Notes under the pieces: generated by a model
Told to the model about the DNA's origin: nothing
Database searches by the model: none
What the model saw: only the letters and a program-made list of their open reading frames with translations
Position numbers and translations under genes: made by a program
Sequence record: MG252615.1
Reading direction: 5' to 3' (one strand)
Source of the DNA: Escherichia phage vB_EcoS_HSE2
Length of the DNA stretch: 41,317 nt
Part shown: positions 1,106 to 35,193 of the stretch, in pieces
Layout: the number at the start of each line of letters is the position of its first letter
Numbering within the stretch: the stretch's first letter is position 1

Positions 1106-3313
1106 ATGTCAAGCGGATGCGGTGACGTTTTAAGCCTGGCGGATTTACAGACCGCCAAGAAACACCAGATTTTCGAAGCTGAGGTTATCACCGGTAAATC
1201 CGGCGGCGTTGCTGGTGGCGCTAATATTGATTACGCGACAAATCAGGTTACCGGACAGGCACAAAAGACGCTACCGGCTGTTATTGCGGACGCCAACGCG
1301 GATTTCGACGCCCAGATTCTGAACATGGGGTTTACTCGCGTCGGAACCTTTGCAGCAGGCGCAACACTTACCAATCCGCGCCAGACTCTGCTGTGGGACG
1401 TTGCCGATGGGGGCGACGGCCAGGAATACGGATGGAGCGGCGCGTTCCCGAAAGTCGTACCCGCGGCCAGCACCCCGGCATCAACTGGTGGAATTTCTGT
1501 TGGAGCTTGGATTAGCCGATTCGACCCTGAATTACGCATTGCTGTGCGCGAAGTCTTGCGCCGCTCCTACGCCGAGACTGGATATAATCTGGTTGCTGGC
1601 AGCTTCGAGGCTGGTGGCACGGTAACGACCGCCACCGATGTGCTGCTATATGAATCGAAAGGCAAAGCCTACTCCTACTCCGGCACTCTGCCGCACACTG
1701 TTGCGGCTGGCTCCACCCCCAGCGCAGAGCCGGAGGTGTGGCTTGATAGGAGCGATGAGTTAAACGCCGTCAAACAAGTTGGGGCTGTATCTATCGCAAC
1801 AATTAACACTTCCATCGCTGGAATGGCGGATGGCGAGCTAACAATACCCCCCGGTGAATACGCAATCAACGGCGATGTGATAATCCAGTTGAAGAACAAC
1901 GAAAGCACTACCGGGCCTTTTGGGTCGTTTCGCTTAAATGCCGAAGGGGTCCGGTTTACAGGTAGCGGAAATATTATTGTCGATAGCTGCAAGAGACTGA
2001 CTATTGTCGGTATCGATGCGCCAAATCACAATCTTATTTTGCGCGGTTGCTGGTGGAGCAACTTCGAAGGGATGCGATTTAAATACCTAATGCTCGCTGA
2101 TGTGGCGGGAACTGCATTTACAAGCAACTACTGGTGTCAGTGGACAAACTGCCAATTCCAATCCATTAAAACTGGCGCGGCTTCAACGTTCAATAATAAG
2201 TTTGATTGGTATTCATGCTCAATGCGGGGTAACGCAAACCAAGGTTTTTCTGGCCCAGCAGACTATGCATTCGAGTTCAACGCTAACGCAAACGCACAAG
2301 CATGGGTTTTCTGGGGAGGGGATATTAGTTATCACAATATTGCTGTTTACAATGTTGGCGCTGGAAACACAAATGGAGACATTGAGTTGACGTTAGACGG
2401 GACGTATTTCGACACGCTGACCCCCGCTCCAATCAATCGCGCTAGAAGCAGAGTTCAAACAAAGAAGTGTCACTACTCAAACAGTACAACAAGCCTTCCG
2501 AACTCTGCAAAAATGCAGGCTGTTGCTCGCGGCGGGCAGGATATGTTTCGCCAAGACCGCTCCGCCGGTTGGGCGCAATTCTCAGCCATCAACTTCATCC
2601 CTGATGGGGATTTCCGCGTAGGTCTTCCGACTTATGCCGGAGCTGGACGTCCTATCGGAGCATCTGGTGGCGCGGTGATCACCGAAGCGTCCGGTGCAAT
2701 ATCCGGCAGATATCTGAACATCAATCAAGCTGGAACAAGTGGCACCACTCGATTTAGGCCGGTGCCGCTCCCGTTCACAGGCAGATACACCGCAGCAATA
2801 ATCATCCGCAATGCCGACCCTGGAGCTAGAACAATCCGCCTTGGTTTTAACAATCTTTACGAAGTCGCAGAGATTAGCAACACGGACTGGACTTTCTGGA
2901 CTCTGACGGTGGGTGCAGACATTGCAGCAGGGCAGCAGCCAGACATCCAAATCCTGACAAATGACGCAACCCCGTTCAACGTTGATGTTTGCTATGCCGC
3001 AGTAACATTTGGTGAGGGTGGGCAGCCCATGGTGGCGGCCCCAGCAGTTAGTGAGCTACTTGGGTCTGTGTCGTACAATCCGCCGAGTATGGCGACTGGG
3101 ACGGGTGCTAGCACGACAATTACAGTAAACGGTGCGGAGCTTGGTGATTTCGCTATCCCCAGTTTCGGGATAGACCTGCAAGGCATTCAAATGTGGGCTC
3201 AGGTAACCAGCGCAAATACCGTTACTGTGTTTTTCAGAAATGAAACAGGGGCGACGATAGATTCGTTGTCATCAACATTGCGAGTACGTGTAGTGAAGGC
3301 CACGTATGTCTAA
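1106..3313 (+). CDS. Tailspike / tail fiber receptor-binding protein (735 aa)
   Basis: Large ORF after the J-like gene; AGAGGA Shine-Dalgarno; Gly/Asn/Thr-rich repetitive middle typical of beta-helix spikes; followed by a strong terminator. Confidence 0.6.
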   Translation: MSSGCGDVLSLADLQTAKKHQIFEAEVITGKSGGVAGGANIDYATNQVTGQAQKTLPAVIADANADFDAQILNMGFTRVGTFAAGATLTNPRQTLLWDVADGGDGQEYGWSGAFPKVVPAASTPASTGGISVGAWISRFDPELRIAVREVLRRSYAETGYNLVAGSFEAGGTVTTATDVLLYESKGKAYSYSGTLPHTVAAGSTPSAEPEVWLDRSDELNAVKQVGAVSIATINTSIAGMADGELTIPPGEYAINGDVIIQLKNNESTTGPFGSFRLNAEGVRFTGSGNIIVDSCKRLTIVGIDAPNHNLILRGCWWSNFEGMRFKYLMLADVAGTAFTSNYWCQWTNCQFQSIKTGAASTFNNKFDWYSCSMRGNANQGFSGPADYAFEFNANANAQAWVFWGGDISYHNIAVYNVGAGNTNGDIELTLDGTYFDTLTPAPINRARSRVQTKKCHYSNSTTSLPNSAKMQAVARGGQDMFRQDRSAGWAQFSAINFIPDGDFRVGLPTYAGAGRPIGASGGAVITEASGAISGRYLNINQAGTSGTTRFRPVPLPFTGRYTAAIIIRNADPGARTIRLGFNNLYEVAEISNTDWTFWTLTVGADIAAGQQPDIQILTNDATPFNVDVCYAAVTFGEGGQPMVAAPAVSELLGSVSYNPPSMATGTGASTTITVNGAELGDFAIPSFGIDLQGIQMWAQVTSANTVTVFFRNETGATIDSLSSTLRVRVVKATYV

Positions 3314-3360
3314 TTTAGCTCAAGCGGAATGGCATCAAGTTGCTGGATAAGAACTATTTA

Positions 3361-3387
3361 AAACTAAGGCCCCGAACGGGGCCTTTT
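3361..3387. terminator. Bidirectional rho-independent terminator at the convergent junction of tailspike and early operon
   Basis: Stem AAGGCCCC/GGGGCCTT with 4-nt loop, T-run after and A-run before. Confidence 0.7.
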
Positions 3388-3526
3388 CTCTACTCTTCGG
3401 ATAACTTCTCCAGTACAAACGCCAGTTGCGCATTAGCGGCATCTCTCTGTTGCCGTAGTCGTAGAACCTCCTCCTCAAGTTCCTTGATACGTTTTTGCAA
3501 TGCCGGAATCGGGGCTATGATGTTCA

Positions 3527-3718
3527 TCATTCGAACTCCATAAAATCACCATTTACCGACTCTGTGTAAATTAGTCCTGTTCTATCATCGTAACACGCGC
3601 CCCAACGATTGGCGGTGTTATCCATCACCACGAATTGCCCGCCACCCTTGTACTCCGCGACGTAATAATTACCTTCATCGAAAACACCTATAGTAGAACT
3701 TACGCAAAACAGTTTCAT
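3527..3718 (-). CDS. Hypothetical protein (63 aa), last gene of leftward early operon
   Basis: ORF with ATGA overlap to the upstream helicase gene. Confidence 0.4.
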   Translation of the reverse strand: MKLFCVSSTIGVFDEGNYYVAEYKGGGQFVVMDNTANRWGACYDDRTGLIYTESVNGDFMEFE

Positions 3719-5145
3719 TTCTTACCTCGTCTCTTCATGTAATTAAGCAACTCTTCTTGGACAGATTTCTTCTCGTCTGTACGCGCGGCAACAACCTCGT
3801 CCAGCGTGTCTTTAGCAACGATATGATACAGGAACACCGGGCGCTCGTGGCCCGCCTGTTTCTGGCGTACCGGGCCTATACGCTCGACAACCTGCAAATA
3901 GTGCTCAAGGTTCCAGCCTTGCGAAATAAACGCCAGATGATGTCCGCCGTCCTGTAAATTCAAACCATGGCCGGCTGACGCGGGGTGCACGCATAGGATT
4001 TCGATTTCGCCACGGTTCCACGCTTCCATCTGCTTATTGCCCTTCGCGCCTTTTGCAAAAGCCTGTGCCTGAGGGAATCGCTTAAGGATGCGCTCCAGTT
4101 CGTGCTTAAACTGATAGGCTACCAGTAACGGCGCACCCTGCAACTCCTCGGCAATGGACTCCAGCGCGTCCAGTTTCGTGTCGTGCACTTTCTCCCAGTC
4201 TTTGGTTGCCTCACCGTCTGGCCCCGACACATATACGGCACCGGAGGCAATCTGCAAACACTTTGACGTCTTCGCCGCCGCGTTAGCCGCTTCAACTTCT
4301 CCGCTCTCCAGTTCCGCGAATAACTTCTCCTCCATATCGATGTACGCCTGACGCGCCTTCTTCGGCAGGTCGATTTCAACCTGCACTATAATAGGCGCTT
4401 CACATCCGAACCACTCAGCGGCGTCAATCGTGAGACTAATGTCCTTCATCTTCTGGTGGATCTCATTATCTGCACCAGGACGCGCATGATACTCCCGCGC
4501 CATCGCCGACTTACCTTTTTGCACAGAGTTGAACCAGCGGTCGGTGAACGCAGTGTACGATGAACCGAGGCGCTCGCCAGCGTCGATAAACCAGTTCTGG
4601 CCCCACAGGTCTTTGAGGCCGTTAGGCGACGGTGTACCAGTCAGGTTGATAAAACGCTTAACCTTTCCGAACGCCACTTTACTTAGCGCCTTCGCCCTCT
4701 TGCTACCGCCAGACCGGCTACGGAATGATTTAAGCTTCGTGCTTTCATCGGCAACAATAACAGTAAAAGGCCAGTCGTCTTTGCCATAGTAGTCAATCAG
4801 CCACTCGATAACTTCGTAGTTCGTGCATACCACGTTAGCGTCCGACTCCAGCGCCGCGATGCGGCGCTTCTCCGAACCAGTTGCGTCTACGACACTCAGA
4901 CAAGGGAAATTCCAACGTGCCTGTTCCGCGGGCCATGTGCCAGACGCAACTCGCAGCGGGGCGAGGATTAACACTCGGTCGTCGTCATTAAGTTGCCCAT
5001 TACGGAACAGTCGATTGAGAACCCACATTGTCGACGAGGTCTTGCCGCCGCCCATACCGCACCAGATATTGCAACGTGGGTGCTGTAGCATAAACGACGT
5101 CATGAGCTTCTGGTACTCTCGACGGATAAATTTAGACATAATCAA
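3715..5145 (-). CDS. Superfamily 2 (SNF2/DEAD-like) DNA helicase
   Basis: Walker A GMGGGKT near N-terminus, DExx box (IVADEST), helicase C-terminal region. Confidence 0.7.
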   Translation of the reverse strand: MIMSKFIRREYQKLMTSFMLQHPRCNIWCGMGGGKTSSTMWVLNRLFRNGQLNDDDRVLILAPLRVASGTWPAEQARWNFPCLSVVDATGSEKRRIAALESDANVVCTNYEVIEWLIDYYGKDDWPFTVIVADESTKLKSFRSRSGGSKRAKALSKVAFGKVKRFINLTGTPSPNGLKDLWGQNWFIDAGERLGSSYTAFTDRWFNSVQKGKSAMAREYHARPGADNEIHQKMKDISLTIDAAEWFGCEAPIIVQVEIDLPKKARQAYIDMEEKLFAELESGEVEAANAAAKTSKCLQIASGAVYVSGPDGEATKDWEKVHDTKLDALESIAEELQGAPLLVAYQFKHELERILKRFPQAQAFAKGAKGNKQMEAWNRGEIEILCVHPASAGHGLNLQDGGHHLAFISQGWNLEHYLQVVERIGPVRQKQAGHERPVFLYHIVAKDTLDEVVAARTDEKKSVQEELLNYMKRRGKK

Positions 5146-5336
5146 CCCTTAACGTAGAGCACCAGCTCTTTACGCCCAAACGCCGTAACGTTGCCGGTTA
5201 CATCTTCAATAACCAGTTTACCGTTCGACTCTACGTACACCGTATCAACGGCAACAGGGCGACGGGTCTTAACGTTGAAAATCATGTCGCCCGGTACGAT
5301 GTCGCGTGCTGGTTTGCGGTCATATTCGTGTTTCAT
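5142..5336 (-). CDS. Hypothetical protein (64 aa)
   Basis: ORF directly downstream of the early promoter at 5370..5398; overlaps helicase start. Confidence 0.4.
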   Translation of the reverse strand: MKHEYDRKPARDIVPGDMIFNVKTRRPVAVDTVYVESNGKLVIEDVTGNVTAFGRKELVLYVKG

Positions 5337-5366
5337 TTCTCAATTCCTTATATTGTTGGTGTGTGA

Positions 5367-5651
5367 CTAACTATAATAGCTCGCTATTAGGGTGTCAACC
5401 TGTTTAAACGAACCGACGACAAAAACATTCGCACCACGTTTACGCATCCGCTCGTGCTCGCGTAACTGGTGCGGGTCAGGCTTCGTGTTTTCGTCTTTCT
5501 TAACCTCGACGAACCAGACGATGCCGCCTGGGAGAATTGCCAGCAGGTCGGGGGCGCCGGAACGTCCTTCGTAGGAGAGCTTACGAACGAGGCCGCCAAT
5601 GGCCTCGAATCGCTCTTTTGCGTATTTCTGAATCTTGCCTTCCGGGGTCAT
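5367..5651 (-). CDS. VRR-NUC domain nuclease (PD-(D/E)XK fold)
   Basis: GAPDLL...VWFVEVKK motif pattern, about 94 aa. Confidence 0.6.
   Translation of the reverse strand: MTPEGKIQKYAKERFEAIGGLVRKLSYEGRSGAPDLLAILPGGIVWFVEVKKDENTKPDPHQLREHERMRKRGANVFVVGSFKQVDTLIASYYS
5370..5398 (-). promoter_or_regulatory. Sigma70-type early promoter with palindromic operator in spacer
   Basis: Minus strand TTGACA, 17-nt spacer, TATAGT; spacer carries AATAGC-TC-GCTATT (plus-strand 5375..5388). Confidence 0.6.
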
Positions 5652-5810
5652 CAGTCCGTTACCTTACACAAAACGGCGACACCTAAAAACACGGCTACGA
5701 TTACCATAATAACGGTAAGCATTGTCATAATATGCACCCCTCACGTTTCGTATGCTCAATCCCGCAGCGCGGACAGATTCGGTAGTCTTCTTCGTAGAAC
5801 CAGTAAATTT

Positions 5811-5942
5811 TCATTCCATCACCCACAGATAAATTGCGATGAACATGCCCAATACGGCTGCCATCATGCCGTATTGGCCCTCGTGACAGTAGACACCGGC
5901 AGCAAATCCCGCCAGTACCGCGATAATCAGTTTACTTGGCAT
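5811..5942 (-). CDS. Small hydrophobic membrane protein (43 aa)
   Basis: Hand-translated MPSKLIIAVLAGFAAGVYCHEGQYGMMAAVLGMFIAIYLWVME; GGAGA Shine-Dalgarno; below ORF-track size cutoff. Confidence 0.3.
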   Translation of the reverse strand: MPSKLIIAVLAGFAAGVYCHEGQYGMMAAVLGMFIAIYLWVME

Positions 5943-8136
5943 AACGCTTCATCTCCGCGCCTTCTGCTACAAGAGGGAACCCATCGGCCCACTCCGGCAA
6001 TGCGCACATTAATTTTTCCAGTTCAGCCACCGTATACTCAGGGGTGTCTGGAGTTTCACATACCAGTTCATCGTGTACCGAAAGCACGATTGGATACCCG
6101 CCGCCCTCAACATTAATCATCGCATACGCAAGTAAATCACGGCACAGCGCCTGAACAATGTTTTCGCAGGCTTTGCCGCCGTGTGTGTACAGGGTAGTCC
6201 ATTGGCGGGTTAACTGGTTTTCGCCTTGGTACTTGATTCGCACATTCGTGTTTACCCGTCCGTCTTCGTCTGTTTCCTTTGTCACACTAACACCGATTCC
6301 AGGATACGAGAGGACGCGACCTGACGGCAACTCCATGCATAACCACCAACCAGGAACCTTCCTGCCGGATGAATCAAATTCTACCGTACGCCATATGCGG
6401 ATAGCCCTTCCCCCCTTCCTGCGCAAGTGTGCTCCCGCCCAAAATTCACGACCAGGATTACGAACAGCGGCTAAAATTCCGTCTTTAAGGTCGCGCCAGA
6501 ACGCTACTGTTTCGGGGTGTGACTCGCGCCACATACGCTTGATTGCGTCACATGTGCGCCACACTTTCTTATCAAGAATATACGATGGTCTGTCATCCTT
6601 TTCACCCGGATGCGGCGGTCGCTTTGCTTCCTGAATACGCGCCCACTCATACCCACGTGCGGTAGCGGCCCAGATGTGGTCGGGGAATGTACCGTCCATT
6701 GTTTTTGCCATCTCAATAAGGTCAAGACCTAAGTTTTTAGCGAACGTAACGAACGCTCCGACGCCCCCCTCATAGCCGAGGCCAAGCTCGCAGGCCTTGC
6801 CTATCTGTCTGATTTCCTTGAAGTTTTTCTTAATATCGTCGGGGTCCATGCCGAACATCTTACCTGCGGTTACGCAGTAAATATCCAGCCCTGCACGGAA
6901 CGTATCGAGCGCAGTTTCTTCTCCCGCCAGCCACGCTAAACCACGGCCTTCGACGTTAGAGTAATCGGCGACGACAAACTTATGTCCGGCTTCCGGGATA
7001 ATGCAGCTACGAACCGTAGATGCCGTTAGCTTGGCTACATCAAAACGGCGATGCGCTCGGCCCTTAAGTAACGCTGAAATGCCTTTATCCAGTTCATCAT
7101 CGTGATAGTAACCGCGCGCCAGGTTCTGCGGCTGGAAGCCTTTACCCGCCCATCGCAGAGTACGTTTTGCCCCGCCGTACTGCAAGCAACCGCGGCGTCG
7201 GTCGTCCGATGAGCGGCCTAACAGTAGCGGGTTATATTTCGTTGATGCTGTGGATGCCGCCCCGAGGCGCATTTCGATAATCGTGCGCGCGTCGTCCGGT
7301 AAATCATCGTCGGCCAGCAGGTCATTCAGCGTTGACTTCTGTGCGTTGTGGATTCGGTGCGCAGGAGCCAGTTCACGCAGAATTGGCAGGAAGTCTTTAC
7401 CGGTAAGCGAGCCGCCGTATTTGCGTTGGGCTTCTTCCTGTAACTGCGCTTTGTGTTTCTCCACGGCTTCAATCGCGGCTTCCGCCAGTGCAACGTCAAC
7501 CTTAAACCCGCGGTCATTGATTAACTGGTCCAGTTCCAGTACACGGTCCTCGAACTCAGAGTTACCCCAACGCGGCAGCTTATGGAATACTTCACGCATC
7601 GCAGTGATGTCGCTCACGGCGTACTTGATGAACAGCGCCCACTCGTCCGGGTGTGTTTCAGCGGTGTAGCGGCGGATTTTGTAGTTCTTCGGTGTTGGTT
7701 TAGAGAAACGCTGAATCAGCGCCTTGCCGCGTTTGTCTTTCGCGTTGTCTGCGGACACGCCCAGCACTTCGCACAAGGCATCAAGAGAACCCGGCAGCGC
7801 GTGGCGAAACGCCCAAATCATCGTATCAATAGTGTTGCTTACCGGTATATCGAAGCCCCAGCAGTGTTTCATGATTAGGCGATCGAACATTGAACCGTTG
7901 TGCCACGCCATCTTAATACGGCTGTTTGGCTTCACCAGGCGGCGTAACGCGCGGTGCAAATCTCCAGGCATGTCGCTGCCGTCGGTGCAATCCCATACCT
8001 GCACAGGTTCGTCGTCAAAAGCGTATGTGCAGATAAGCACTTCGGTTGACGGGTGTTCAGCGTAAGCGTAGGAACCGACTTTCTTTAAATCTATGCCGCT
8101 GTAGGTTTCAAAGTCTAAGTAAAGCAATGTGTTCAT
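5932..8136 (-). CDS. DNA polymerase, family A, with N-terminal 3'-5' exonuclease domain
   Basis: Exo motif LDFETYS; polymerase motifs DYSNVEGR (A), KxxxKxxNFGxxYG-like (B), VHDEL (C); ATG at 8136 overlaps upstream stop (ATGA). Confidence 0.85.
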   Translation of the reverse strand: MNTLLYLDFETYSGIDLKKVGSYAYAEHPSTEVLICTYAFDDEPVQVWDCTDGSDMPGDLHRALRRLVKPNSRIKMAWHNGSMFDRLIMKHCWGFDIPVSNTIDTMIWAFRHALPGSLDALCEVLGVSADNAKDKRGKALIQRFSKPTPKNYKIRRYTAETHPDEWALFIKYAVSDITAMREVFHKLPRWGNSEFEDRVLELDQLINDRGFKVDVALAEAAIEAVEKHKAQLQEEAQRKYGGSLTGKDFLPILRELAPAHRIHNAQKSTLNDLLADDDLPDDARTIIEMRLGAASTASTKYNPLLLGRSSDDRRRGCLQYGGAKRTLRWAGKGFQPQNLARGYYHDDELDKGISALLKGRAHRRFDVAKLTASTVRSCIIPEAGHKFVVADYSNVEGRGLAWLAGEETALDTFRAGLDIYCVTAGKMFGMDPDDIKKNFKEIRQIGKACELGLGYEGGVGAFVTFAKNLGLDLIEMAKTMDGTFPDHIWAATARGYEWARIQEAKRPPHPGEKDDRPSYILDKKVWRTCDAIKRMWRESHPETVAFWRDLKDGILAAVRNPGREFWAGAHLRRKGGRAIRIWRTVEFDSSGRKVPGWWLCMELPSGRVLSYPGIGVSVTKETDEDGRVNTNVRIKYQGENQLTRQWTTLYTHGGKACENIVQALCRDLLAYAMINVEGGGYPIVLSVHDELVCETPDTPEYTVAELEKLMCALPEWADGFPLVAEGAEMKRYAK

Positions 8137-8411
8137 AGTCCGTACCACGTCTGATAGTCTGCTTCTGTTAGATGGTCGTCGCGTTCTGGTTTCTTGTTTT
8201 TACCACGTTCTATTATTTCCGCCCGAGTCCGGTCTGGGTCTGTGTCCTCTATTAAGTGTTTATGTTCCTCGCATGCATAGTGTTTATACCAGTCTCGTAC
8301 CTTGTAAGCGGGAGGGTATTTAGTCATCCAAATTGCTCTAACTTTTTTACCTTCTGCCTTGCAAAATTTGCAGTAGGTGACGTGTCTGTATCTCTTAAGT
8401 TCCGCTGCCAT
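8133..8411 (-). CDS. Hypothetical Cys/His-rich protein (92 aa)
   Basis: CKFC and CEEH pairs suggest a zinc-binding fold. Confidence 0.45.
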   Translation of the reverse strand: MAAELKRYRHVTYCKFCKAEGKKVRAIWMTKYPPAYKVRDWYKHYACEEHKHLIEDTDPDRTRAEIIERGKNKKPERDDHLTEADYQTWYGL

Positions 8412-8427
8412 TATTTTCGACCCTTAG

Positions 8428-8450
8428 TAAAAAGGCCCTTCATTGGGCCT
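8428..8450 (-). terminator. Intrinsic terminator/attenuator after the SSB-like gene
   Basis: Stem AGGCCC/GGGCCT with 6-nt loop, then T-run on the minus strand. Confidence 0.5.
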
Positions 8451-8470
8451 TAGTTAAATTGATTCAGATA

Positions 8471-9097
8471 TTAGCGGCGGCGACGTTCGCGGCGCGGTGC
8501 TTCATCTTCTTCGTCGTCTTCCAGGTCATTGACGCTTGCAGCGACTTTAGAACCCCCGAACGCTTTACCCTCACCAACGTATTTAATTGCCAGCAGGTTA
8601 ACCCCGAGGACTTTGTATTTCTGGCTGAACCAGATTTCGACGCTTACGTTAGCAACGCAGCCGCTGTAAACCTGTTCGCCTTCAATCTGTTCGCCGTCTA
8701 CGTTGAAGTCCTGTTCTACCTGAGTCTCACCTTTTTTAGAGGTTACAATCAGTGGCTGTTTCTGTGCCTTTGCTTTGAAGTAGAAGCCTTCCGGGAAGTC
8801 TTCAAACGGATTGTCGCGCTCGGCGATGTCTTTAATCGCGCATTTATCCATGTGCTTACCTTCGCCGTAGTTGGACTTCATCCACTTCTCGGCGGCGGCT
8901 GCACCTAATGCTTCTTCAACTACAGCGTAGACTGTGTCGTAGAGCGCATCGATTTGCGCGTGGTCAGACGGCAGGATGATAGTTGCGCTATACTGACCTT
9001 TAGTGATTGAGCCATCATCGTTTTCACGGTCTTTTTCGCGTTCGAATACGTTAACCCAAGCAGTGTTTACTTTACGCAGATTTAATTTCAGTCCCAT
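8471..9097 (-). CDS. Putative ssDNA-binding protein (phage SSB-like, acidic C-terminal region)
   Basis: About 208 aa, acidic stretch DLEDDEEDE near C-terminus, placed inside the replication module; fold not verified. Confidence 0.4.
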   Translation of the reverse strand: MGLKLNLRKVNTAWVNVFEREKDRENDDGSITKGQYSATIILPSDHAQIDALYDTVYAVVEEALGAAAAEKWMKSNYGEGKHMDKCAIKDIAERDNPFEDFPEGFYFKAKAQKQPLIVTSKKGETQVEQDFNVDGEQIEGEQVYSGCVANVSVEIWFSQKYKVLGVNLLAIKYVGEGKAFGGSKVAASVNDLEDDEEDEAPRRERRRR

Positions 9098-9150
9098 CTT
9101 GATTTCTCGCTTTTAAGTTTACTCCGGGAACCGCCCGGCCAGTGATTAGA

Positions 9151-9179
9151 ACTATAATAGCTTACTATTCAGGTGTCAA
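9151..9179 (-). promoter_or_regulatory. Sigma70-type early promoter with palindromic operator in spacer
   Basis: TTGACA, 17-nt spacer, TATAGT on minus strand; spacer has AATAGC-TT-ACTATT (9156..9169). Confidence 0.6.
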
Positions 9180-9183
9180 CACT

Positions 9184-9675
9184 TTATTTGCCGTGGTTTT
9201 CGTGGAAACCGTACTTAACTTCTGCAGCCTTTCTCGCGGCTATTGCGTCGTCGATAGTTTCGAAACGTCCGAGATGAATTACTCGCTTCTTAACTTTTAT
9301 CTCAGCTCGCCATTTTCCGCGGCTTTTATCAAACCTAACACCCGTCACACCGGACGTGTTGTTGCGAGCTAAAGATAAATTACGGCTGTTCTCTTTTCGG
9401 GTTGTTTTCCTCAAATTAGAAAGAAGATTATTTTCTCGATTATGGTCGATATGGTCTATCTCCTCTCCGGGTTGAAGTTTATTTTCAGGCTTCATCATAT
9501 CCCATATAATTCTATGCGCCTGAAATGTCCTTCCGTGTAAACGGACGCACACATAACCCCAATTACGAACAGCAGCAACTTCGCTCCCGGCGGGCGCGCG
9601 ATTGCTGTTAGTTACGCGCCAATATAACTTACCAGTGTTGGTGTCATACCTAAAATAATCTCCCCATTTAATCAT
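9184..9675 (-). CDS. HNH homing endonuclease with C-terminal AP2 DNA-binding domain
   Basis: HNH motif IDHIDHNRENN...N; AP2-like GVTGVRFDKSRGKWRAEIKV...HLGRFETIDDAIAARKAAEVKYG; ATGA overlap with upstream gene. Confidence 0.75.
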   Translation of the reverse strand: MIKWGDYFRYDTNTGKLYWRVTNSNRAPAGSEVAAVRNWGYVCVRLHGRTFQAHRIIWDMMKPENKLQPGEEIDHIDHNRENNLLSNLRKTTRKENSRNLSLARNNTSGVTGVRFDKSRGKWRAEIKVKKRVIHLGRFETIDDAIAARKAAEVKYGFHENHGK

Positions 9676-10928
9676 TCCAAATCCTCCTCTGTTACCCCTT
9701 TCCACTCAGGTCGTTTGTCGTCTGCTGCGGCGATTGTCGGTCGACCAGGATTACGGATAATGAATTCCGTCAGTTCTTCTTCTGGGATAACTTTCACGGC
9801 TGCTGTAGGGGTAATGATTGACTTAGCCATAACTTTATCTCCAAATTTAGCAATAACTGCCTCTGGGTCCGCCCAGGAGCGATTGCCACCCCGCCCTTCA
9901 ACCAGTTTGTACCCCGGCACTTTCTTACCGGAATGCAACGCAGTAGCCATAGCTTTTTCAACCTTGTCGATGTGCTGGCGCAACAACGGCAACTTCTCAT
10001 ACTCAGCTACTAGTTGCTCCGGCGTAAGCTCAAGTGCAAAGTCGTCCTCCAGTTCTTCCGCCAGCACAGAATTAACCGTCTTTGTACGCGCGGCGCATTG
10101 TTCTGAGAACCGACACCACTGACAACCATCGACCGACGGTTTGAAATCCGACGCTTTAAGGTTCTTCTTACCGCGGAAATAAGCATCAAGCGCTAACAGC
10201 GCGCGTTTCTGTGCGAACTTAGCGAACAGTTCCAGACCTTCAACCGAGATGTCCCACTCCGACGCACCGCCCGCGTATGGCTGGAAGATGACCAGACGAA
10301 CCACGGTGATGTTATAACGTCTCTTGAGTCGGCGATAAACACCAAGAGCGTAAAGCATGAGCTGCTTGTTTTCTTTCGCTTCGACACGATGCCGTCCAGT
10401 TTTCAGGTCGCCGATAATGAGCATGTGCTCGTCGGAGTTAGCCAGTTCCCGCACGGCAACAAGGTCAGCCGTTCCGAACGTCTCAACGCCTTCGTACCCT
10501 GGGTGCAATACCTCAGTAAGATTGACGCGCATTTCCAGCTTGGCGTATGTCGCTACATCGATAATCGCTTTGCAGTAGTCGGTGTACTTTCGCACCTGTT
10601 CAATCATGTCCGCCGTAATCAGTACCGCACCTTTCATCGGGCTGATAAGCGCCTTAATCTGGCCTTTACCCTCATCCAGCACGTAAGTACCGACTTCGCG
10701 CTCTAACGGCAACGCAGTTCCGCGAATATAAGCGTTGAGGTGGACCTCCGCTATTGTGTGGCACGCGGTCCCTGTAACGGCGGATTTACCAGACGTGTTG
10801 GGGATATCTTTTTCGCATGCCAGTGATGCAGCACAACTCAGCCACTTTTTAGCACCTGACGGCGACAGTAAGGCGTGCACGTCATTATTGCCGCCGCGTT
10901 CTTTTAAAATCATGCCCTGTTCTCCCAC
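9672..10928 (-). CDS. PD-(D/E)XK nuclease, Cas4/RecB-like, with 4-Cys cluster
   Basis: DLKTGRH...E.K...QLMLYALG nuclease motifs; N-terminal Cys plus C-terminal CQWCRFSEQC. Confidence 0.6.
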   Translation of the reverse strand: MGEQGMILKERGGNNDVHALLSPSGAKKWLSCAASLACEKDIPNTSGKSAVTGTACHTIAEVHLNAYIRGTALPLEREVGTYVLDEGKGQIKALISPMKGAVLITADMIEQVRKYTDYCKAIIDVATYAKLEMRVNLTEVLHPGYEGVETFGTADLVAVRELANSDEHMLIIGDLKTGRHRVEAKENKQLMLYALGVYRRLKRRYNITVVRLVIFQPYAGGASEWDISVEGLELFAKFAQKRALLALDAYFRGKKNLKASDFKPSVDGCQWCRFSEQCAARTKTVNSVLAEELEDDFALELTPEQLVAEYEKLPLLRQHIDKVEKAMATALHSGKKVPGYKLVEGRGGNRSWADPEAVIAKFGDKVMAKSIITPTAAVKVIPEEELTEFIIRNPGRPTIAAADDKRPEWKGVTEEDLE

Positions 10929-11182
10929 TGGTCAATTAGATGTCTGGTCTGGTGCTGGCAATGCATAGCCCAGCTATACATCGACTCGAAGACATAAAAG
11001 TCAGGTTTTGCGAAAGTCGTGCGCTTAATCTGCGACACGTGACGGCCTATATCTTTAGGCCGCGGTACTTTGCCTAAGTACGCCATCTCTTCCATCTGGT
11101 GCGCACCGGACGGCGCACGCAATAGCCATAGCGCCTCTGTGTTATCCCGCCTGTCTACGGCGCGATAGAGTTGGTAAATCAT
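10910..11182 (-). CDS. Hypothetical protein (90 aa)
   Basis: ORF in early operon. Confidence 0.4.
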   Translation of the reverse strand: MIYQLYRAVDRRDNTEALWLLRAPSGAHQMEEMAYLGKVPRPKDIGRHVSQIKRTTFAKPDFYVFESMYSWAMHCQHQTRHLIDQWENRA

Positions 11183-11225
11183 ATTTCCGACCCTCAGTTA
11201 AAGCGGCCCGAAGGCCGCCAGATAG

Positions 11226-11726
11226 TTATTCTTCTTCGAAATACTTGTTCTTGATCGCCGTCAGGCGTTCCAGGTACTCTGCCAGGTCTTCATCTTTAAT
11301 CGCGGCAATCTTCATCTTCTTACCGGTGAACTCTTCCAGCAGTTCGTCAGAATCGTCGCACGCGGCATCGCTTGGACCTTCGTTAATCGCATCGTCGATA
11401 GCCTGAATCTGGTCCCGAAGAGACTGGTAATCGACTTCTTCTTTCTCTTCTTCCGGCTCTGGCGTAGGCTCCTCTGCTTTAGCTTTACGCGGCTTGCGTT
11501 TAGGCTTCTCGTCTTCCGCCGGTTTAGTGTCGACGATGTTTTCACCTTCGACCGGGATTTCTTTTGTTGCTTCTTCGGTGCACTCGGCTACCGCTTCTTT
11601 GGCATACACTACCGTCTCTACTTCCAGCGGCGCGGCAACCTGAACAACCTGTTTCACACTGTTCGCAGCAATCAGTTCATGCGCAACTACGAAACGTTCC
11701 AGTAATTTCAGAAATTGTTCTAACAT
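11226..11726 (-). CDS. Highly acidic, low-complexity early protein (166 aa), first gene after the early promoter
   Basis: Glu/Asp-rich with PEPEEEKEE and C-terminal FEEE; promoter-proximal position. Confidence 0.5.
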   Translation of the reverse strand: MLEQFLKLLERFVVAHELIAANSVKQVVQVAAPLEVETVVYAKEAVAECTEEATKEIPVEGENIVDTKPAEDEKPKRKPRKAKAEEPTPEPEEEKEEVDYQSLRDQIQAIDDAINEGPSDAACDDSDELLEEFTGKKMKIAAIKDEDLAEYLERLTAIKNKYFEEE

Positions 11727-11757
11727 TTGTTTCTCTCCTCTCGTTTGGTATGGGCTA

Positions 11758-11786
11758 ACTATAATAGCGAACTATTCACATGTCAA
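11758..11786 (-). promoter_or_regulatory. Sigma70-type early promoter with palindromic operator in spacer
   Basis: TTGACA, 17-nt spacer, TATAGT; spacer has AATAGC-GA-ACTATT (11763..11776). Confidence 0.6.
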
Positions 11787-11790
11787 TGGG

Positions 11791-11819
11791 TTTTTCTAAA
11801 ATAATTAATATGGTACTAT
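11791..11819 (+). promoter_or_regulatory. Putative promoter of the XRE regulator gene with operator-like palindrome
   Basis: -10 TACTAT at 11814..11819, weak A/T-rich -35; AATATG-GT-ACTATT at 11807..11820; divergent from the early promoter. Confidence 0.4.
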
Positions 11820-11850
11820 TCGCATATCAACTAACTAAGGAGTAATTGAT

Positions 11851-12066
11851 ATGCAACCCTCTGAACTAGGCATCCGTGTAGAACAACGCCGCAAAGAACT
11901 CGGCATCTCCCAGCGCCGTCTGGCTGTCCTGACCGGCGTTTCCCAGGGCGCAATTAACCAGCTGGCACTTGGGGTAACTCAGGATGTCCGCCCGGCGACG
12001 CTGTTTAAACTGGCGGAAGTGCTGCAAGTAGACGCTAAGTGGCTGGCGTTGGGTGAAGGGGCTTAA
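11851..12066 (+). CDS. XRE-family helix-turn-helix transcriptional regulator (Cro-like, 71 aa)
   Basis: HTH signature ELGISQRRLAVLTGVSQGAINQL; AAGGAG Shine-Dalgarno; lone plus-strand gene inside minus-strand block. Confidence 0.75.
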   Translation: MQPSELGIRVEQRRKELGISQRRLAVLTGVSQGAINQLALGVTQDVRPATLFKLAEVLQVDAKWLALGEGA

Positions 12067-12081
12067 CGCCCCCTTTCTTTT
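12056..12081 (+). terminator. Intrinsic terminator overlapping the XRE stop codon
   Basis: Stem GGGGC/GCCCC with loop TTAAC, followed by TTTCTTTTT. Confidence 0.6.
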
Positions 12082-12084
12082 TAC

Positions 12085-14322
12085 CTATTCCAAATCCTCC
12101 TCTGTCACCACCAGCATTTCATTCGGTTCGTATATTGTCTTCGGCCTTAATCTATCCCCTATTCTTTCGGGTATACGATATGTTCTCGGTACTACTTCGC
12201 CGTTAGCATCGCAACCAAGCATTAGTTCTCCGTCTTTCAGCATTTTATCAAGATGGGTGTTAGTCACAGAAAAGTCACCGGAACGAGCCACTATCTGCTG
12301 CTGAGTAAAACCGCGACCTGTATCATCCGACTGTTGCAGGTCTTCCAGTGCCGAAAGTATTGACTCCTTCCTTACTTCATCCCTGCCGCGTTTAACTTCT
12401 TCCTTTACTTTTTCTTTACCTTTATCAGATAGCCCTTCTTCCCGCTCTTTCTCCTCGTCGGTCTTGAACGGTTCGAAACCCCACGGCATCAGCACAAGTG
12501 CCTTATGCGGCTCAGGAAGGTCCAGGTTTACGATTGTACCGTATTCCTCCGTGCTGCCCAGGAACTCAACCGCGCGGTATTCTTTCGGCGGCGGGGCTTC
12601 ACGGAACTGTACAGACTCAAGCACCATGCCGACGGTTTTCTGTTGAGGCCCGTGCTTAAATTTCGAGTGGTATACGTTTATCTGGCGGTCGGTAGCGCGT
12701 TCGATTGTCAGCTCGACGTCGACACCTGCATACAGTGCCCCGCTGCCACGGGCTTTCTTTCCACCCTTCGGCGTATGGTGGACAACGCCCACCGCGGCTT
12801 TAGTCGCATCACGTACTTCTTTCAGGATGGCGATAACTTTACCCATACCGATTGCCGTGGACGAACTGTTCTCGTCGAACTTATCAATCGTCAGGGCTAG
12901 CGTCTGGTTAAGGGTATCAAACGCGACCACCCCAATTGGCTCATCGCCAGCAGTTTCACGCATTAACTTAATCAGGCTTTTCAGTTTTCCGACTTCGCCC
13001 ATATCGATAACATGTACATAATCTTTACCTTCCTCGCCATATTTAGCCGCTAGCGCATCAATACGTGTACGTGTAGCTGCACCGCCTTCGCCATCGATAT
13101 AGAAATGGTGGCAACGCTGGGTATCCGCCCCTGCAAACCGGTATCCGGCGGCGCTCAGGTACATCATCCCCAGCGTATAGAATGATTTGTACGTACCAGA
13201 TTCACCGACAATATCCCATATGCAATCTGACGGCATGTAACCTTCTACTACGAAATCAGCCTTTACCGGTTCCGGTAGCTCGTCCTCTTCTGAGCCCTCG
13301 TCTTCCAGGTCGTCGAGGCTGCATGAAACAGATTCACGCGCACCCCATCCGATAGCCTCGGCGACTTCACTGAACGGCAGTCCGGTCGCATCACACGCGT
13401 ATTTCCACACTTCTTTCGGGGGCATTCCTTCGGTCGCGGCAATGTCGGTGTCGTGAATCATGGTTACGTTCGGCGCTTCGTATCCCTCGCGCGGGAAACA
13501 TAACAGGAAGTCGTCCGGGCGTGGTGTCGGGTCGCTGTAGTTTTCTGCGTGTTCTGGCGTAGCTGGCATCTTAAGGCCACGCGGCGTCATGATGCCGCCG
13601 TACTCGAATGCCAGTGCTTCAAACGCATCTGTAAACGCGGTGCGCAGTTCTTCCGGTATCTGGTAATCAGATGCGCTGCTGATGTCAACGGCTGGGACGC
13701 CTTCCAGTAACTCATCAGGGTCAATCAGGTCGTTGCGGCGCGACCAGATAACGGTAGCGCCGACAGGAGGCAAGTACATCGGCTGCGAAAGAGTGAACCC
13801 GCTGCGGTCGGCACCCATGCCTTTGAAGAAGTGCTCCAGTAATCCATGGCGAACACGGATGATGTTGCCGCCTTCGACCGGGCGGGCCAGCGGCATGACG
13901 ACGCGAAAGCGCGGGGCTTCGTCTGTGTGTGATGCCGTGGTATAGAGGCACATCGCCCGCCGGCTGCGCTTAACCAGGCGCACAGCTTCCTGATACTCTT
14001 CCAGGGTTGCACTGTCAAAGTCCAGGTACGCCAGCGACGATTTGCTTACAGACGCGTCGCAGCGATAGAAAAAGCCTTTACGCGCTTGCTTAAAGTCACC
14101 TGTTTCCGGGTCTTTTACGGTGCTGTGCGTAGAGTCGCACGCAGCGGTGATGTAACCAGGTGCGGTCTTCGGGTTAATTCCGTCACGGACAGCATCAAGC
14201 GGCTGGATTAAATCTTTCAGGTCGTCCAGCGTTGCCGTGTGTGTGGTTCTGACGTTTATATCCTTTTTCTCGGCCCGCGCGTTGCGACGAGACCACGAGT
14301 AGGATAAAATTACATCGGACAT
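12085..14322 (-). CDS. Primase-helicase (N-terminal primase-like region, C-terminal RecA-like ATPase)
   Basis: 745 aa; Walker A-like GESGTYKS and RecA/DnaB-like core in C-terminal half; replication-module position. Confidence 0.65.
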   Translation of the reverse strand: MSDVILSYSWSRRNARAEKKDINVRTTHTATLDDLKDLIQPLDAVRDGINPKTAPGYITAACDSTHSTVKDPETGDFKQARKGFFYRCDASVSKSSLAYLDFDSATLEEYQEAVRLVKRSRRAMCLYTTASHTDEAPRFRVVMPLARPVEGGNIIRVRHGLLEHFFKGMGADRSGFTLSQPMYLPPVGATVIWSRRNDLIDPDELLEGVPAVDISSASDYQIPEELRTAFTDAFEALAFEYGGIMTPRGLKMPATPEHAENYSDPTPRPDDFLLCFPREGYEAPNVTMIHDTDIAATEGMPPKEVWKYACDATGLPFSEVAEAIGWGARESVSCSLDDLEDEGSEEDELPEPVKADFVVEGYMPSDCIWDIVGESGTYKSFYTLGMMYLSAAGYRFAGADTQRCHHFYIDGEGGAATRTRIDALAAKYGEEGKDYVHVIDMGEVGKLKSLIKLMRETAGDEPIGVVAFDTLNQTLALTIDKFDENSSSTAIGMGKVIAILKEVRDATKAAVGVVHHTPKGGKKARGSGALYAGVDVELTIERATDRQINVYHSKFKHGPQQKTVGMVLESVQFREAPPPKEYRAVEFLGSTEEYGTIVNLDLPEPHKALVLMPWGFEPFKTDEEKEREEGLSDKGKEKVKEEVKRGRDEVRKESILSALEDLQQSDDTGRGFTQQQIVARSGDFSVTNTHLDKMLKDGELMLGCDANGEVVPRTYRIPERIGDRLRPKTIYEPNEMLVVTEEDLE

Positions 14323-14380
14323 GTTGTATTTCCTTCAGCAAGTAATTTGGCCTCGGCGTTCACCGCGTCGGGGCTTTCTT

Positions 14381-14614
14381 TTATTCCAGGTCTTCTAAAG
14401 TGGCTGCCATTCCGCGAACTTCTGCAACGGCGCTATATTTCCCGCCAACGTTTTTCACGACACCGGATTTAACCAGCACCTTTAACGACCCCTCAATAAT
14501 GGCGGAACTATAGTACTTAAAATAACTACGACGCAAGTCGATAACGCTGCACGACCCTTTTTTACGCGTCAACGAAACGACCGCCGTAAATACGCGTAAC
14601 TGGAACTCGGTCAT
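14381..14614 (-). CDS. Small winged-helix-like protein (77 aa) ending in TLEDLE
   Basis: ORF between HTH gene and primase; C-terminal motif shared with two other replication proteins. Confidence 0.45.
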   Translation of the reverse strand: MTEFQLRVFTAVVSLTRKKGSCSVIDLRRSYFKYYSSAIIEGSLKVLVKSGVVKNVGGKYSAVAEVRGMAATLEDLE

Positions 14615-14781
14615 TTTACATTCTCCTTAATCCACGCCTCTACTTTCTCCGGGTCAAATGTACCTGGCTGCCGGCGCCCCATAATGCGGATACAACAATC
14701 CGGGAACTTACCGCTCTTTAACCAGTTATTCAGCGTGCGACGAGTAACCCCGATACGCTCTGCTACCTCGTTCTGTGTCAT
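14611..14781 (-). CDS. Small HTH DNA-binding protein (AlpA/excisionase-like fold), first gene of the primase operon
   Basis: MTQNEVAERIGVTRRTLNNWLKSGKFP; GAGG Shine-Dalgarno 8 nt before ATG at 14781. Confidence 0.55.
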   Translation of the reverse strand: MTQNEVAERIGVTRRTLNNWLKSGKFPDCCIRIMGRRQPGTFDPEKVEAWIKENVK

Positions 14782-14813
14782 TCTCAAACCCTCATTATCA
14801 GTTAACGAAACCA

Positions 14814-14842
14814 AGTATACATTGCGAATAATGGGAAATCAA
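14814..14842 (-). promoter_or_regulatory. Sigma70-type promoter for the primase operon
   Basis: Minus strand TTGATT, 17 nt, TATACT. Confidence 0.5.
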
Positions 14843-14857
14843 ACATAATTGCACCTA

Positions 14858-14886
14858 TTGACATTATGAAAATCTTCGTTTAAGAT
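14858..14886 (+). promoter_or_regulatory. Sigma70-type promoter pointing into the noncoding region
   Basis: TTGACA, 17 nt, TAAGAT; divergent from the 14814..14842 promoter. Confidence 0.45.
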
Positions 14887-15129
14887 GCTTCTATATCTTA
14901 GTTACTTTGATTCCTGTTCACCTTGTAAGAATGTTTAACCCGTGCGTCAAGCAAAGGGTTAAACACAGGCTTACTGAACATGAGAATTATCGTAACTTTC
15001 CTTCCTAAGTATCTCCGGTTGCCCTGGGCAAGCTCTATTCTCATCGGCGGCATATCTCTTAAGTATCTGATTTTCTTAATGTGCCGTAGATTCGCAACCG
15101 TAAAAATGTAACGATTATTGGGCAGGCTT

Positions 15130-15153
15130 AAGGCCTGCCCTTTAGTTACCAAG
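15130..15153 (+). terminator. Hairpin terminator-like element in noncoding region
   Basis: Stem GGGCAGGC/GCCTGCCC, loop TTAAG, then TTTAGTT. Confidence 0.4.
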
Positions 15154-15222
15154 TAATAAGAATAAAGGCACAACACTACCTGAAGAATCACAACGGCAAC
15201 GTAACCATTTTCAATGAATCTC

Positions 15223-15251
15223 TTGCACACCCCAACATAATAGGTTACTAT
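15223..15251 (+). promoter_or_regulatory. Middle-class promoter (conserved 30-nt family) with operator palindrome
   Basis: TTGCAC-ACCCCAACATAATAGGT-TACTAT; palindrome AATAGG-TT-ACTATT (15239..15252). Confidence 0.6.
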
Positions 15252-15370
15252 TCACTTATCGAGGCGAGGCAGGGAGCCAACCTTTAATAAGGTCAGTAGC
15301 GGCGACGAGCATACGAAGAGTCGATAAGCCCGGTAAGCAGAACCTAAATTAACTAAGAGAGAAAAGCTGG

Positions 15371-15688: not shown

Positions 15689-15727
15689 TGATGCTCGTGC
15701 CGACGACTCTGAGGGAGGTTGCCGTGA

Positions 15728-15919: not shown

Positions 15920-15922
15920 GTT

Positions 15923-16066: not shown

Positions 16067-16069
16067 TTT

Positions 16070-16270: not shown

Positions 16271-16405
16271 CAGGTCAATAGGTTACTATTTGACTGAGTG
16301 ACTTACGCTGCTACACAGCAGCGTACAACTTTAGATTAGTGTCGTCAAAAAGCGACACTTTCACCGAACGCAACAATAGAAGCGATTATTGCAGGAGATG
16401 CAACA

Positions 16406-16576: not shown

Positions 16577-16583
16577 AATTTAC

Positions 16584-16612
16584 TTGCACACTAAGATAGA
16601 ATAGGCTACTAT
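16584..16612 (+). promoter_or_regulatory. Middle-class promoter with operator palindrome
   Basis: TTGCAC, 17-nt spacer, TACTAT; AATAGG-CT-ACTATT (16600..16613). Confidence 0.6.
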
Positions 16613-19594: not shown

Positions 19595-19616
19595 ATCTAT
19601 TTTCTGTAATGACTAG

Positions 19617-19645
19617 TTGACTATTACCTACGACCCTACTATATT
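19617..19645 (+). promoter_or_regulatory. Sigma70-type promoter for the small-gene chain
   Basis: TTGACT, 17 nt, TATATT. Confidence 0.55.
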
Positions 19646-26254: not shown

Positions 26255-26255
26255 T

Positions 26256-26820: not shown

Positions 26821-26849
26821 ATAGTACCCTATTATATTGGGGTGCGCAA
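26821..26849 (-). promoter_or_regulatory. Middle-class promoter driving the lipoprotein cassette
   Basis: Minus strand TTGCGC-ACCCCAATATAATAGGG-TACTAT; 30-nt core identical to the promoter at 35165..35193. Confidence 0.6.
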
Positions 26850-26915
26850 ACTATTTGTTTATGTATTCCAGTTATTCCACCAAATTGTAAATATTGGAAT
26901 AAACTATTCGAATAG

Positions 26916-26944
26916 TTGACTTTTCACCAAAAATGTGCTAAGCT
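26916..26944 (+). promoter_or_regulatory. Sigma70-type promoter preceded by 16-bp palindrome AACTATTCGAATAGTT
   Basis: TTGACT, 17 nt, TAAGCT; palindrome at 26902..26917. Confidence 0.45.
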
Positions 26945-35164: not shown

Positions 35165-35193
35165 ATAGTACCCTATTATATTGGGGTGTGCAA
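35165..35193 (-). promoter_or_regulatory. Middle-class promoter driving the Imm/phosphoesterase/HNH cassette
   Basis: Minus strand TTGCAC-ACCCCAATATAATAGGG-TACTAT; transcription start only about 9 nt before the Imm ATG. Confidence 0.6.

Follow-up and report, generated by a model that had tools for sequence, protein, structure and literature searches.

The closest described counterpart of the element analysed here, a 14-bp dyad (AATAG-N4-CTATT) that recurs at promoters of Escherichia phage vB_EcoS_HSE2, is found in phage 434, where Cro and cI act on operators in OR and OL. The 434 operators are 14 bp long; the protein dimer contacts the outer 5+5 positions, of which the outer 4+4 show conservation, and makes no contact with the central 4 (PMC1636474). 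Herein, we analysed the dyad together with a small XRE-type regulator gene in a 41,317-nucleotide (nt) stretch of this phage (record MG252615.1; hereafter, the window), a 41.3-kb sequence that covers nearly the whole genome of this virulent E. coli siphovirus, a Kagunavirus (Guernseyvirinae). On balance, comparison of sequences and predicted structures favours the reading that the dyad is the operator of a dimeric helix-turn-helix (HTH) protein of the phage, most likely the 434-Cro-like XRE, and that the two form a Cro-type repressor-operator pair.

The likeness to 434 concerns both partners. XRE is a homologue of 434 Cro over its full length and in its fold, and both proteins have 71 amino acids (aa); the dyad has the same 14-bp layout, with conserved outer 5+5 positions and a variable central 4; and the putative operators lie over core promoter elements, one of them at the regulator's own promoter. 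In contrast to 434, no cI partner, lysogeny module or tripartite OR/OL cluster accompanies the regulator, and the half-site is AATAG instead of the ACAA of 434. Neither cI nor integrase is among the annotated genes of the relatives Bas70 and AG11, and the gene divergent from XRE is an open reading frame (ORF) of the replication module, an arrangement different from a lambdoid immunity switch. The 125-bp intergenic region between XRE and the leftward promoter P3 (see below) holds two sites, 44 bp apart from centre to centre, and the other sites are single and dispersed.

The proposed logic is that of lambda Cro in the turn-down of PL and PR, where a small dimeric protein, expressed early, comes to repress the early promoters and with them its own, although lambda Cro has another fold and the phage studied here is strictly virulent, with a putative regulon of replication, accessory and membrane-protein operons. 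The controller C proteins of restriction-modification systems (C.AhdI, C.BclI, C.PvuII) are likewise small XRE-fold dimers and bind promoter dyads to time gene expression (PMC2647307). They differ in serving their own operon through paired activating and repressing sites upstream of and over the -35 hexamer, whereas the dyads of vB_EcoS_HSE2 lie in the spacer or over the -10 hexamer of many promoters. Mycobacteriophage L5 gp71 also combines one repressor with many dispersed genomic sites and its own promoter, but its stoperators are asymmetric 13-bp sites within the transcription units of a temperate phage, while the present sites are symmetric and stand in the promoters of a virulent one.

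The dyad at promoters of vB_EcoS_HSE2

A sequence-only reading of the window had proposed three leftward promoters (here class F1) with TTGACA, a 17-nt spacer and TATAGT, each with a palindrome inside the spacer. All three were found exactly as described, and their palindromes fit AATAG(C/T)NN(G/A)CTATT, i.e., AATAG-N4-CTATT.

5370..5398, minus strand: P1, class F1, read from 5398 to 5370 as TTGACA ccctAATAGCGAGCTAT TATAGT; dyad AATAGCGAGCTATT at 5375-5388, about -25 to -12; predicted to drive 5142-5336 and the helicase operon.
9151..9179, minus strand: P2, class F1, read from 9179 to 9151 as TTGACA cctgAATAGTAAGCTAT TATAGT; dyad at 9156-9169; predicted to drive the SSB-like gene 8471-9097 and the DNA polymerase gene.
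11758..11786, minus strand: P3, class F1, read from 11786 to 11758 as TTGACA tgtgAATAGTTCGCTAT TATAGT; dyad at 11763-11776; predicted to drive 11226-11726 and the exonuclease operon; transcribed away from the XRE gene.

The composite 29-nt F1 pattern matched 3 times against 0.00 expected. P1 to P3 were the top 3 sigma70-like sites in 3000-20000, each agreeing with the consensus at 11/12 positions, and the best sigma70-like sites in 20000-39999 reached at most 10/12. The F1 dyad spans spacer positions 5-17, and its final T is the first base of the -10 hexamer. An antisense promoter built on the opposite-strand TATAAT at the F1 sites was also considered and rejected, as an acceptable -35 was not found.

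A motif scan revealed the exact dyad AATAGNNNNCTATT 8 times in the window versus 0.02 expected, and in a de novo search for 5-N-5 palindromes it was the most over-represented one (8 copies; the next best had 3). All exact copies were located at promoter-like sites, either intergenic or at the 3' edge of a gene. The sequence-only reading had tied the element to the replication promoters; the three promoters are borne out, but the exclusivity is not, at least 8 to 11 sites being marked. The additional sites belong to the rightward small-gene cluster, to two leftward operons in the structural region and to the XRE gene's own promoter. Four of the five extra exact copies (15239, 16600, 26820 and 35164) fall into a second class, F2 (cTTGCAC, 17 nt, TACTAT), in which the dyad begins 10 nt after the -35 hexamer and takes in the -10 hexamer. 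The sites outside F1 are as follows.

15223..15251, plus strand: F2 promoter, TTGCAC-17-TACTAT; dyad AATAGGTTACTATT at 15239-15252 over the -10; predicted to drive the rightward small-gene cluster from 15371.
16277..16290, plus strand: exact dyad AATAGGTTACTATT with a TACTAT hexamer, for which a credible -35 was not found; flanked by the DUF551 gene and a conserved hairpin; possibly an operator on its own, or else a weak promoter.
16584..16612, plus strand: F2 promoter, TTGCAC-17-TACTAT; dyad at 16600-16613; predicted to drive the genes from 16644 on.
26821..26849, minus strand: F2 promoter, TTGCGC-17-TACTAT; dyad at 26820-26833; predicted to drive 26351-26793.
35165..35193, minus strand: F2 promoter, TTGCAC-17-TACTAT; dyad at 35164-35177; predicted to drive the leftward exonuclease cluster 33063-35149.
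19612..19645, plus strand: F3-type site; dyad-like ACTAGTTGACTATT at 19612-19625 with one arm mismatch, centred on the -35 of TTGACT-17-TATATT; possibly a low-affinity operator.
26911..26944, plus strand: F3-type site; dyad-like AATAGTTGACTTTT at 26911-26924 with one arm mismatch, covering the -35 of TTGACT-17-TAAGCT; followed downstream by the Rz-like and head genes.
11807..11820, unstranded: imperfect dyad AATATGGTACTATT with one arm mismatch; between P3 and XRE, 31 bp upstream of the XRE start codon.

With the start site assumed to lie 7 nt downstream of the -10 hexamer, the dyad occupies about -25 to -12 in F1, -19 to -6 in F2 and -40 to -27 in F3, and it occurs in both orientations relative to transcription. 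The dyads overlap predicted -35 or -10 hexamers at these promoters, whose start sites are themselves predictions. Both F1 (11/12) and F2 (TTGCAC-17-TACTAT) present the -35/-10 pair at 17 +/- 1 bp that is expected of a sigma70 promoter. The dyad at 11807-11820 overlaps either candidate XRE promoter (TTCACA-16-TAAAAT at 11775-11802, or one with a TACTAT -10 at 11814-11819) and is conserved in relatives; judged from its sequence and place, it is likely an autoregulatory operator of XRE.

The orientation of F2 was assigned because a Shine-Dalgarno (SD) sequence and ATG lie downstream, TTGCAC stands at a fixed 17 nt from TACTAT among paralogues with differing intervening sequence, and the F1 and F2 leaders are homologous and equidistant from the assigned -10; the opposite reading (TGAATAGTAcCCTATTATATTGGGGTGTGCAAG) was rejected on these grounds. 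An antisense candidate, ATCACA-17-TATAAT at 35203-35175, was rejected as well, as it is not conserved at the paralogous sites. The leaders that follow F1, F2 and F3 promoters share sequence (..ACACCAACAAT.. / ..CAAACGAGAGGAG..) at an equal distance from the -10 (5340-5369, 11727-11757, 16613-16643, 35120-35164 and 19646-19680), and the promoter-leader units therefore look like paralogous cassettes.

Some of these sites have been reported before under another name. In Kagunavirus fBC-Eco01, a PHIRE scan yielded seven 'phage RNAP promoters' (RNAP, RNA polymerase) with the consensus tgAATAGTa-ccTATTat-T, and these, PP1-PP7 (PMC9825357, Table S2), correspond to F2-type sites, the XRE-upstream site (PP5, the 11807 site) and one F1-like site; seven more phage-specific promoters were reported by PHIRE in Golestan. 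The motif was so not previously unseen, only misread. The published assignment to a phage-encoded RNAP draws on its recovery as a repeated 20-mer and is contradicted by gene content, since an RNAP or sigma gene is neither annotated in Bas70 or AG11 nor present in Pfam scans of small ORFs; in addition, the motif forms part of promoters whose -35/-10 pairs are of sigma70 type and stand 17 bp apart. We accord this assignment practically no probability. The searched literature gave no link between the motif and dyads in host-type TTGACA promoters or a Cro-like protein, and the searches on Guernseyvirinae transcription, Cro-like regulators in virulent phages and MB78 promoters returned nothing usable.

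The XRE protein and other candidate binders

Given the geometry of the dyad, which matches that of an HTH-dimer operator (14-17 bp, conserved outer half-sites, variable centre), the DNA-binding proteins encoded in the window were compared. Two genes are of concern.

11851..12066, plus strand: XRE gene, encoding a 71-aa HTH_3 protein homologous to 434 Cro and to the 434 cI N-terminal domain; candidate operator binder.
14611..14814, minus strand: HTH_17 (excisionase-like) gene, encoding a small DNA-binding protein; alternative binder; its promoter, TTGATT-17-TATACT at 14814-14842, is dyad-free.

XRE matched Pfam HTH_3 with an E-value of 1e-12 and aligned over its full length to 434 Cro, 434 cI and P22 C2 (434 Cro, E 7e-6, residues 6-68). 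Its AlphaFold2 model (predicted local distance difference test score 77) has five helices, and the best PDB matches were 434 repressor 1pra and 434 Cro 2cro (template modeling scores 0.69-0.77, 36-40% identity); Pfam, the HMMER alignment and the model thus agree on a five-helix Cro/cI-type HTH fold. According to the HMMER alignment, the equivalents of 434 Q28 and Q33 are retained in the recognition helix, SQGAINQ, and Q29 is replaced by G. In the 434 complexes, Q28 reads base 1 and Q33 base 4, both of which are A in 434 and in the present operator; we take this as an agreement, not as a test. An XRE orthologue was present in 65/65 related loci covering the region, and a homologue search by protein retrieved close relatives only. 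Besides XRE, the recognisable DNA-binding proteins were HTH_17 and a weak NinH match; Pfam scans of 20 small ORFs detected no further HTH protein.

Among the structural neighbours of XRE are the controller C proteins of restriction-modification systems, which both activate and repress. Considering also that the F2 promoters (TTGCAC/TACTAT) agree with the consensus at only 7 to 8/12 positions and were missed by the sigma70 scan, one may speculate that the dyad binder activates or re-specifies them as 'middle' promoters and perhaps also represses F1, a dual-function temporal switch. In the 1990s, the related virulent Salmonella phage MB78 was reported to have a strong promoter without a -35 consensus, with which a phage-specific factor interacts. 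However, the F2 dyad extends from -19 to -6, over the -10 hexamer, and no HTH activator is known to work from the dyad positions of F1 or F2 (-12 or -18; -19 to -6). MerR-type activators that act on the spacer need 19-20 bp, and the spacers here have 17 bp, occasionally 18; a MerR-type mechanism is therefore ruled out. F1, being near-consensus, would not need an activator. We regard a dual-function switch as unlikely.

Expression data exist for Kagunavirus K1B4, which was followed by RNA-seq at a multiplicity of infection of 100 from 5 to 120 min, with genes assigned to coarse classes by peak time and no per-gene phage table (PMC12645636). An HTH gene was among the four earliest, the DNA polymerase gene was among the late-peaking ones, and the middle genes included a 'specific DNA binding' gene adjoining the AAA (primase-helicase) gene; most genes peaked after 30 min, which suits a dual-function switch. 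From gene order, we infer that the earliest HTH gene is HTH_17, and the 'specific DNA binding' gene is probably XRE. The data are compatible with a shut-off or with none, and they leave room for the dual-function switch.

Conservation of the dyad and covariation with the XRE class

The comparison comprised about 70 related genomes, including Kagunavirus and other loci from IMG/VR; within 5000-12500, the window is 89-91% identical to BCH953P1, 590B and Bas70. The palindrome was sought in the promoters of related phages, where its absence would have spoken against the sequence-only reading, and was present there, with nearly invariant arms, a variable centre and a fixed position relative to the -10. 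At 92 F1-type sites from 36 Kagunavirus loci, the arms were invariant save one AGTAG, and both the central 4 nt and the 4 nt separating the -35 from the dyad varied freely. The F1-type spacers measured 17 bp, occasionally 18, and the extra base was on the -35 side, indicating that the dyad is locked to the -10. A motif-anchored information profile was discarded as circular and replaced by less clean alignments anchored on the downstream genes; in these, the arms were again more conserved than the centre, with a power limited by how closely the sampled genomes are related. The 35164 promoter has an orthologue in Jerseyvirus AG11 with unchanged positions of the -35, the 17-nt spacer and the -10 but with the dyad shifted by 3 bp. 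Three registers, both orientations and this shift lead to the conclusion that the dyad is an entity apart from the hexamers recognised by polymerase.

These results bear on an explanation without any trans-acting factor, in which the dyad would be shared because promoter-leader cassettes descend from one another or undergo gene conversion, and because polymerase constrains the sequence near the -10. The homologous F1, F2 and F3 leaders, the arm that overlaps or abuts the -10 and the high similarity of the sampled close relatives are in line with it. Yet the distal F1 arm, at -25 to -21, is invariant amid varying neighbours in a region that sigma70 does not read base-specifically, the dyad adopts different registers and orientations, and all sites of a genome switch arms and flanks jointly across clades under the same host polymerase (see below). 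Descent and polymerase constraint by themselves thus appear a very unlikely explanation.

XRE has diverged to an unusual degree: the proteins of Kagunavirus and Jerseyvirus share 49% aa identity, whereas most matches of replication-module DNA to Salmonella phages are at 80-90% nt identity. When the genomes were sorted by XRE recognition helix, the arm pairs formed an exclusive, diagonal table.

SQGAINQ and SQSLITH: arms AATAG/CTATT.
TQSAISH (Cornellvirus): arms A(A/T)TAC/CTAAT.
SQGRVSH: arms AATAC/CTATT.
SQGYISH: arms TTTAGC/GCTAAT.

In the SQGYISH class, positions 2 and 13 have changed symmetrically, and the variant of this class occurs at 4 to 5 promoters per locus, in F1-, F2- and F3-type registers and at the XRE promoter. 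Within each genome all sites switch arms jointly while the host polymerase is constant, which fits the prediction of a shared trans-acting reader. A divergent clade in IMG/VR (L067 and L068; e.g., L067:761-774, 2701-2714 and 9927-9940) carries the promoter dyad TTTAGC-NN-GCTAAT; its core TTAGCnnGCTAA resembles the SlyA/RovA consensus TTAGCAAGCTAA, a resemblance that we presume to be coincidental.

The flanks of the dyad vary with XRE as well. Genomes with a Jersey-type XRE have T-AATAG...CTATT-A at 84/84 flanks, and Kaguna-type genomes have G at the flank on one, unconstrained side. Three loci from IMG/VR (L011, L013 and L031) are Jersey-like overall, including XRE, primase-helicase and tail genes, with a Kaguna-like SSB-DNA polymerase segment. 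The P2 of these mosaics, which may represent one single event, retains the Kaguna upstream sequence, -35-proximal spacer and TATAGT and carries flank T instead of G. In L011, the recombination junction lies at the boundary between the -10 and the dyad of P3, and XRE therefore travels with its adjacent operator.

The same comparisons speak to a host transcription factor that the phage exploits and that would bind the dyad; the SlyA-like core of the divergent clade is a point in its favour. Jerseyvirus and Cornellvirus both infect Salmonella and have different elements, which argues against a host factor; conversely, Kagunavirus (E. coli) and Jerseyvirus (Salmonella) have different hosts and the same arms, and the flank variant follows the XRE type of the phage. 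A host binder is highly improbable.

A phage protein other than XRE, namely HTH_17 or an unrecognised small protein, could also be the reader of the operator. HTH_17 is confined to Kagunavirus and Jerseyvirus, exactly the two genera with AATAG/CTATT, where it is 85-100% conserved, and it is absent from clades with other arms; moreover, the HTH gene among the four earliest K1B4 genes is taken to be HTH_17, and its own promoter is dyad-free, as expected of an upstream regulator. However, a homologue of HTH_17 was not found in Cornellvirus or other divergent clades, which still carry the element in variant form, and a flank switch that tracks the XRE type would be left unexplained by HTH_17. Excisionase-type HTH_17 proteins are typically monomers on direct repeats, a poor fit to a perfect 14-bp dyad. 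Another phage binder is, in our estimation, quite unlikely.

A predicted Cro-type circuit and its genomic setting

The sites and their excess over chance, their promoter context and conservation, the relation of XRE to 434 Cro in sequence and predicted fold, and arms and flanks that covary with the XRE class together argue for the Cro-type repressor-operator pair. The core idea of the sequence-only reading, an operator for a dimeric HTH repressor with XRE as the candidate, thus gained support from comparison (conserved arms and variable centre in a 5-4-5 geometry, the homology and constant presence of XRE, and variants that track the helix class); its restriction to the replication operons did not survive, and their shut-off would be one part of a wider regulation. 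We infer binding, the identity of the binder and the timing of regulation, and repression as its sign because of the operator positions.

Several points weigh against this reading. One arm of the F2 dyad coincides with the -10 hexamer (TACTAT) and the F1 arm abuts it, so that part of the dyad conservation could stem from polymerase contacts, and the promoters, with their homologous leaders, are paralogous cassettes. A simple code relating recognition helix to half-site was sought across the XRE classes and did not emerge, since Kaguna (SQGAINQ) and Jersey (SQSLITH) proteins share the 5-bp arms at 49% identity. Most of the covariation between XRE and arms is confounded with phylogeny, and Cornellvirus and two other clades have arms that are not strictly symmetric at position 5. 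Finally, the K1B4 pattern, in which the earliest HTH gene is taken to be HTH_17 rather than XRE and DNA polymerase is late, is unlike an early shut-off, although the design of that study is uninformative in this respect.

As a Cro-type pair, the system might operate as follows. Host sigma70 polymerase would start at the near-consensus F1 promoters of the replication operons and at the weaker F2 promoters of the small-gene, lipoprotein and exonuclease operons. XRE would be made from its own weak promoter, both candidates for which have the P3 operator and the imperfect 11807-11820 site beside or over them, and would accumulate until its dimers occupy the dyads over the spacer (F1), the -10 (F2) and perhaps the -35 (F3). 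Bound dimers would exclude RNAP and turn these transcription units down, and XRE would limit its own synthesis through the operator at its promoter. The scheme would resemble Cro at OR and OL during lytic growth of lambdoid phages, except that a cI partner is lacking and the operators are genome-wide. Cro-type turn-down is a textbook kind of system; the genome-wide operator regulon is what is predicted here.

A bolder version, which we consider doubtful, would make XRE an orphan Cro and the master timer of Guernseyvirinae: through operators at three registers, nearly all non-structural units would be shut down, and possibly activated, in a graded manner, and regulator and operators would have co-diversified into mutually exclusive classes. 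By analogy, such specificity classes would, with the same reserve, correspond to the heteroimmunity groups of temperate phages. Cross-regulation between co-infecting relatives may have driven them, and mosaics may re-tune acquired promoters to the resident regulator.

The module layout of the window, derived from comparison with the Bas70 annotation and from ORF maps, is as follows.

3335-14322, leftward: replication module with helicase, DNA polymerase, SSB-like protein, exonuclease and primase-helicase; XRE (11851-12066) is the sole rightward gene inside it.
15371-21109, rightward: small genes and lysis genes.
Remainder of the window: structural module, interrupted by two short leftward operons, 26351-26793 and 33063-35149.

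Further observations were made around these modules. A hairpin at 12045-12076, 3' of the XRE stop codon and between the convergent XRE and primase-helicase genes, could terminate transcription in both directions and in this way shield XRE, an antisense unit inside the leftward replication module. Immediately upstream of P2 lies an ORF for a homing endonuclease with HNH_3 and AP2 domains (9184-9705, minus strand), and the sequence 5' of the P2 -35 exists in at least 3 variants among relatives, all of which keep the P2 promoter and dyad. The P2 leader (about 9105-9150, minus strand), the 5' untranslated region of the SSB-like gene, contains hairpin-forming CACTGGCCGGGCGGTTCCCGGAGT, conserved in Kagunavirus and Jerseyvirus, and its start (..CACTGGCCGGGCAG..) is also kept in Cornellvirus; the hairpin may be a translational or stability element. 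Within the head-gene region, the products of the leftward operon 26351-26793 (minus strand) are a hydrophobic peptide of 33 aa and a 114-aa protein whose lipobox, LSGC, predicts a lipoprotein; they may have superinfection-exclusion or membrane functions. A dyad with one mismatch, TATAGTATGCTATT, at 24711-24724 (plus strand) lies directly 3' of a terminator (24691-24706) and extends over the start codon (ATG, 24717) of the head-morphogenesis gene; a convincing -35 was not found for it. At two places, a rightward sigma70-like promoter precedes a leader of 200-250 nt that closes with a strong intrinsic terminator shortly before the downstream genes: 26916-27150 (plus strand; TTGACT-17-TAAGCT with a TGn extended -10, terminator 27124-27143) and 14858-15140 (plus strand; TTGACA-17-TAAGAT, terminator 15120-15140). 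Their layout recalls lambda PR'-6S RNA-tR', an analogy that suggests either small RNAs or late genes under antitermination control.

Phage therapy and food biocontrol are fields for which Kagunaviruses and Jerseyviruses are widely isolated. In published annotations, the XRE gene goes by 'repressor' or 'Cro', and the motif is given as a 'phage RNAP promoter'; a defined operator-regulator pair, if true, would correct both labels. In that case, the presence of a 'repressor' gene would not mark these phages as temperate, a safety concern that recurs for lytic therapeutic phages. The pair would also supply compact, orthogonal repressor, operator and promoter parts in several natural specificity classes, and it would offer a tractable case of regulator-operator co-evolution in virulent phages.

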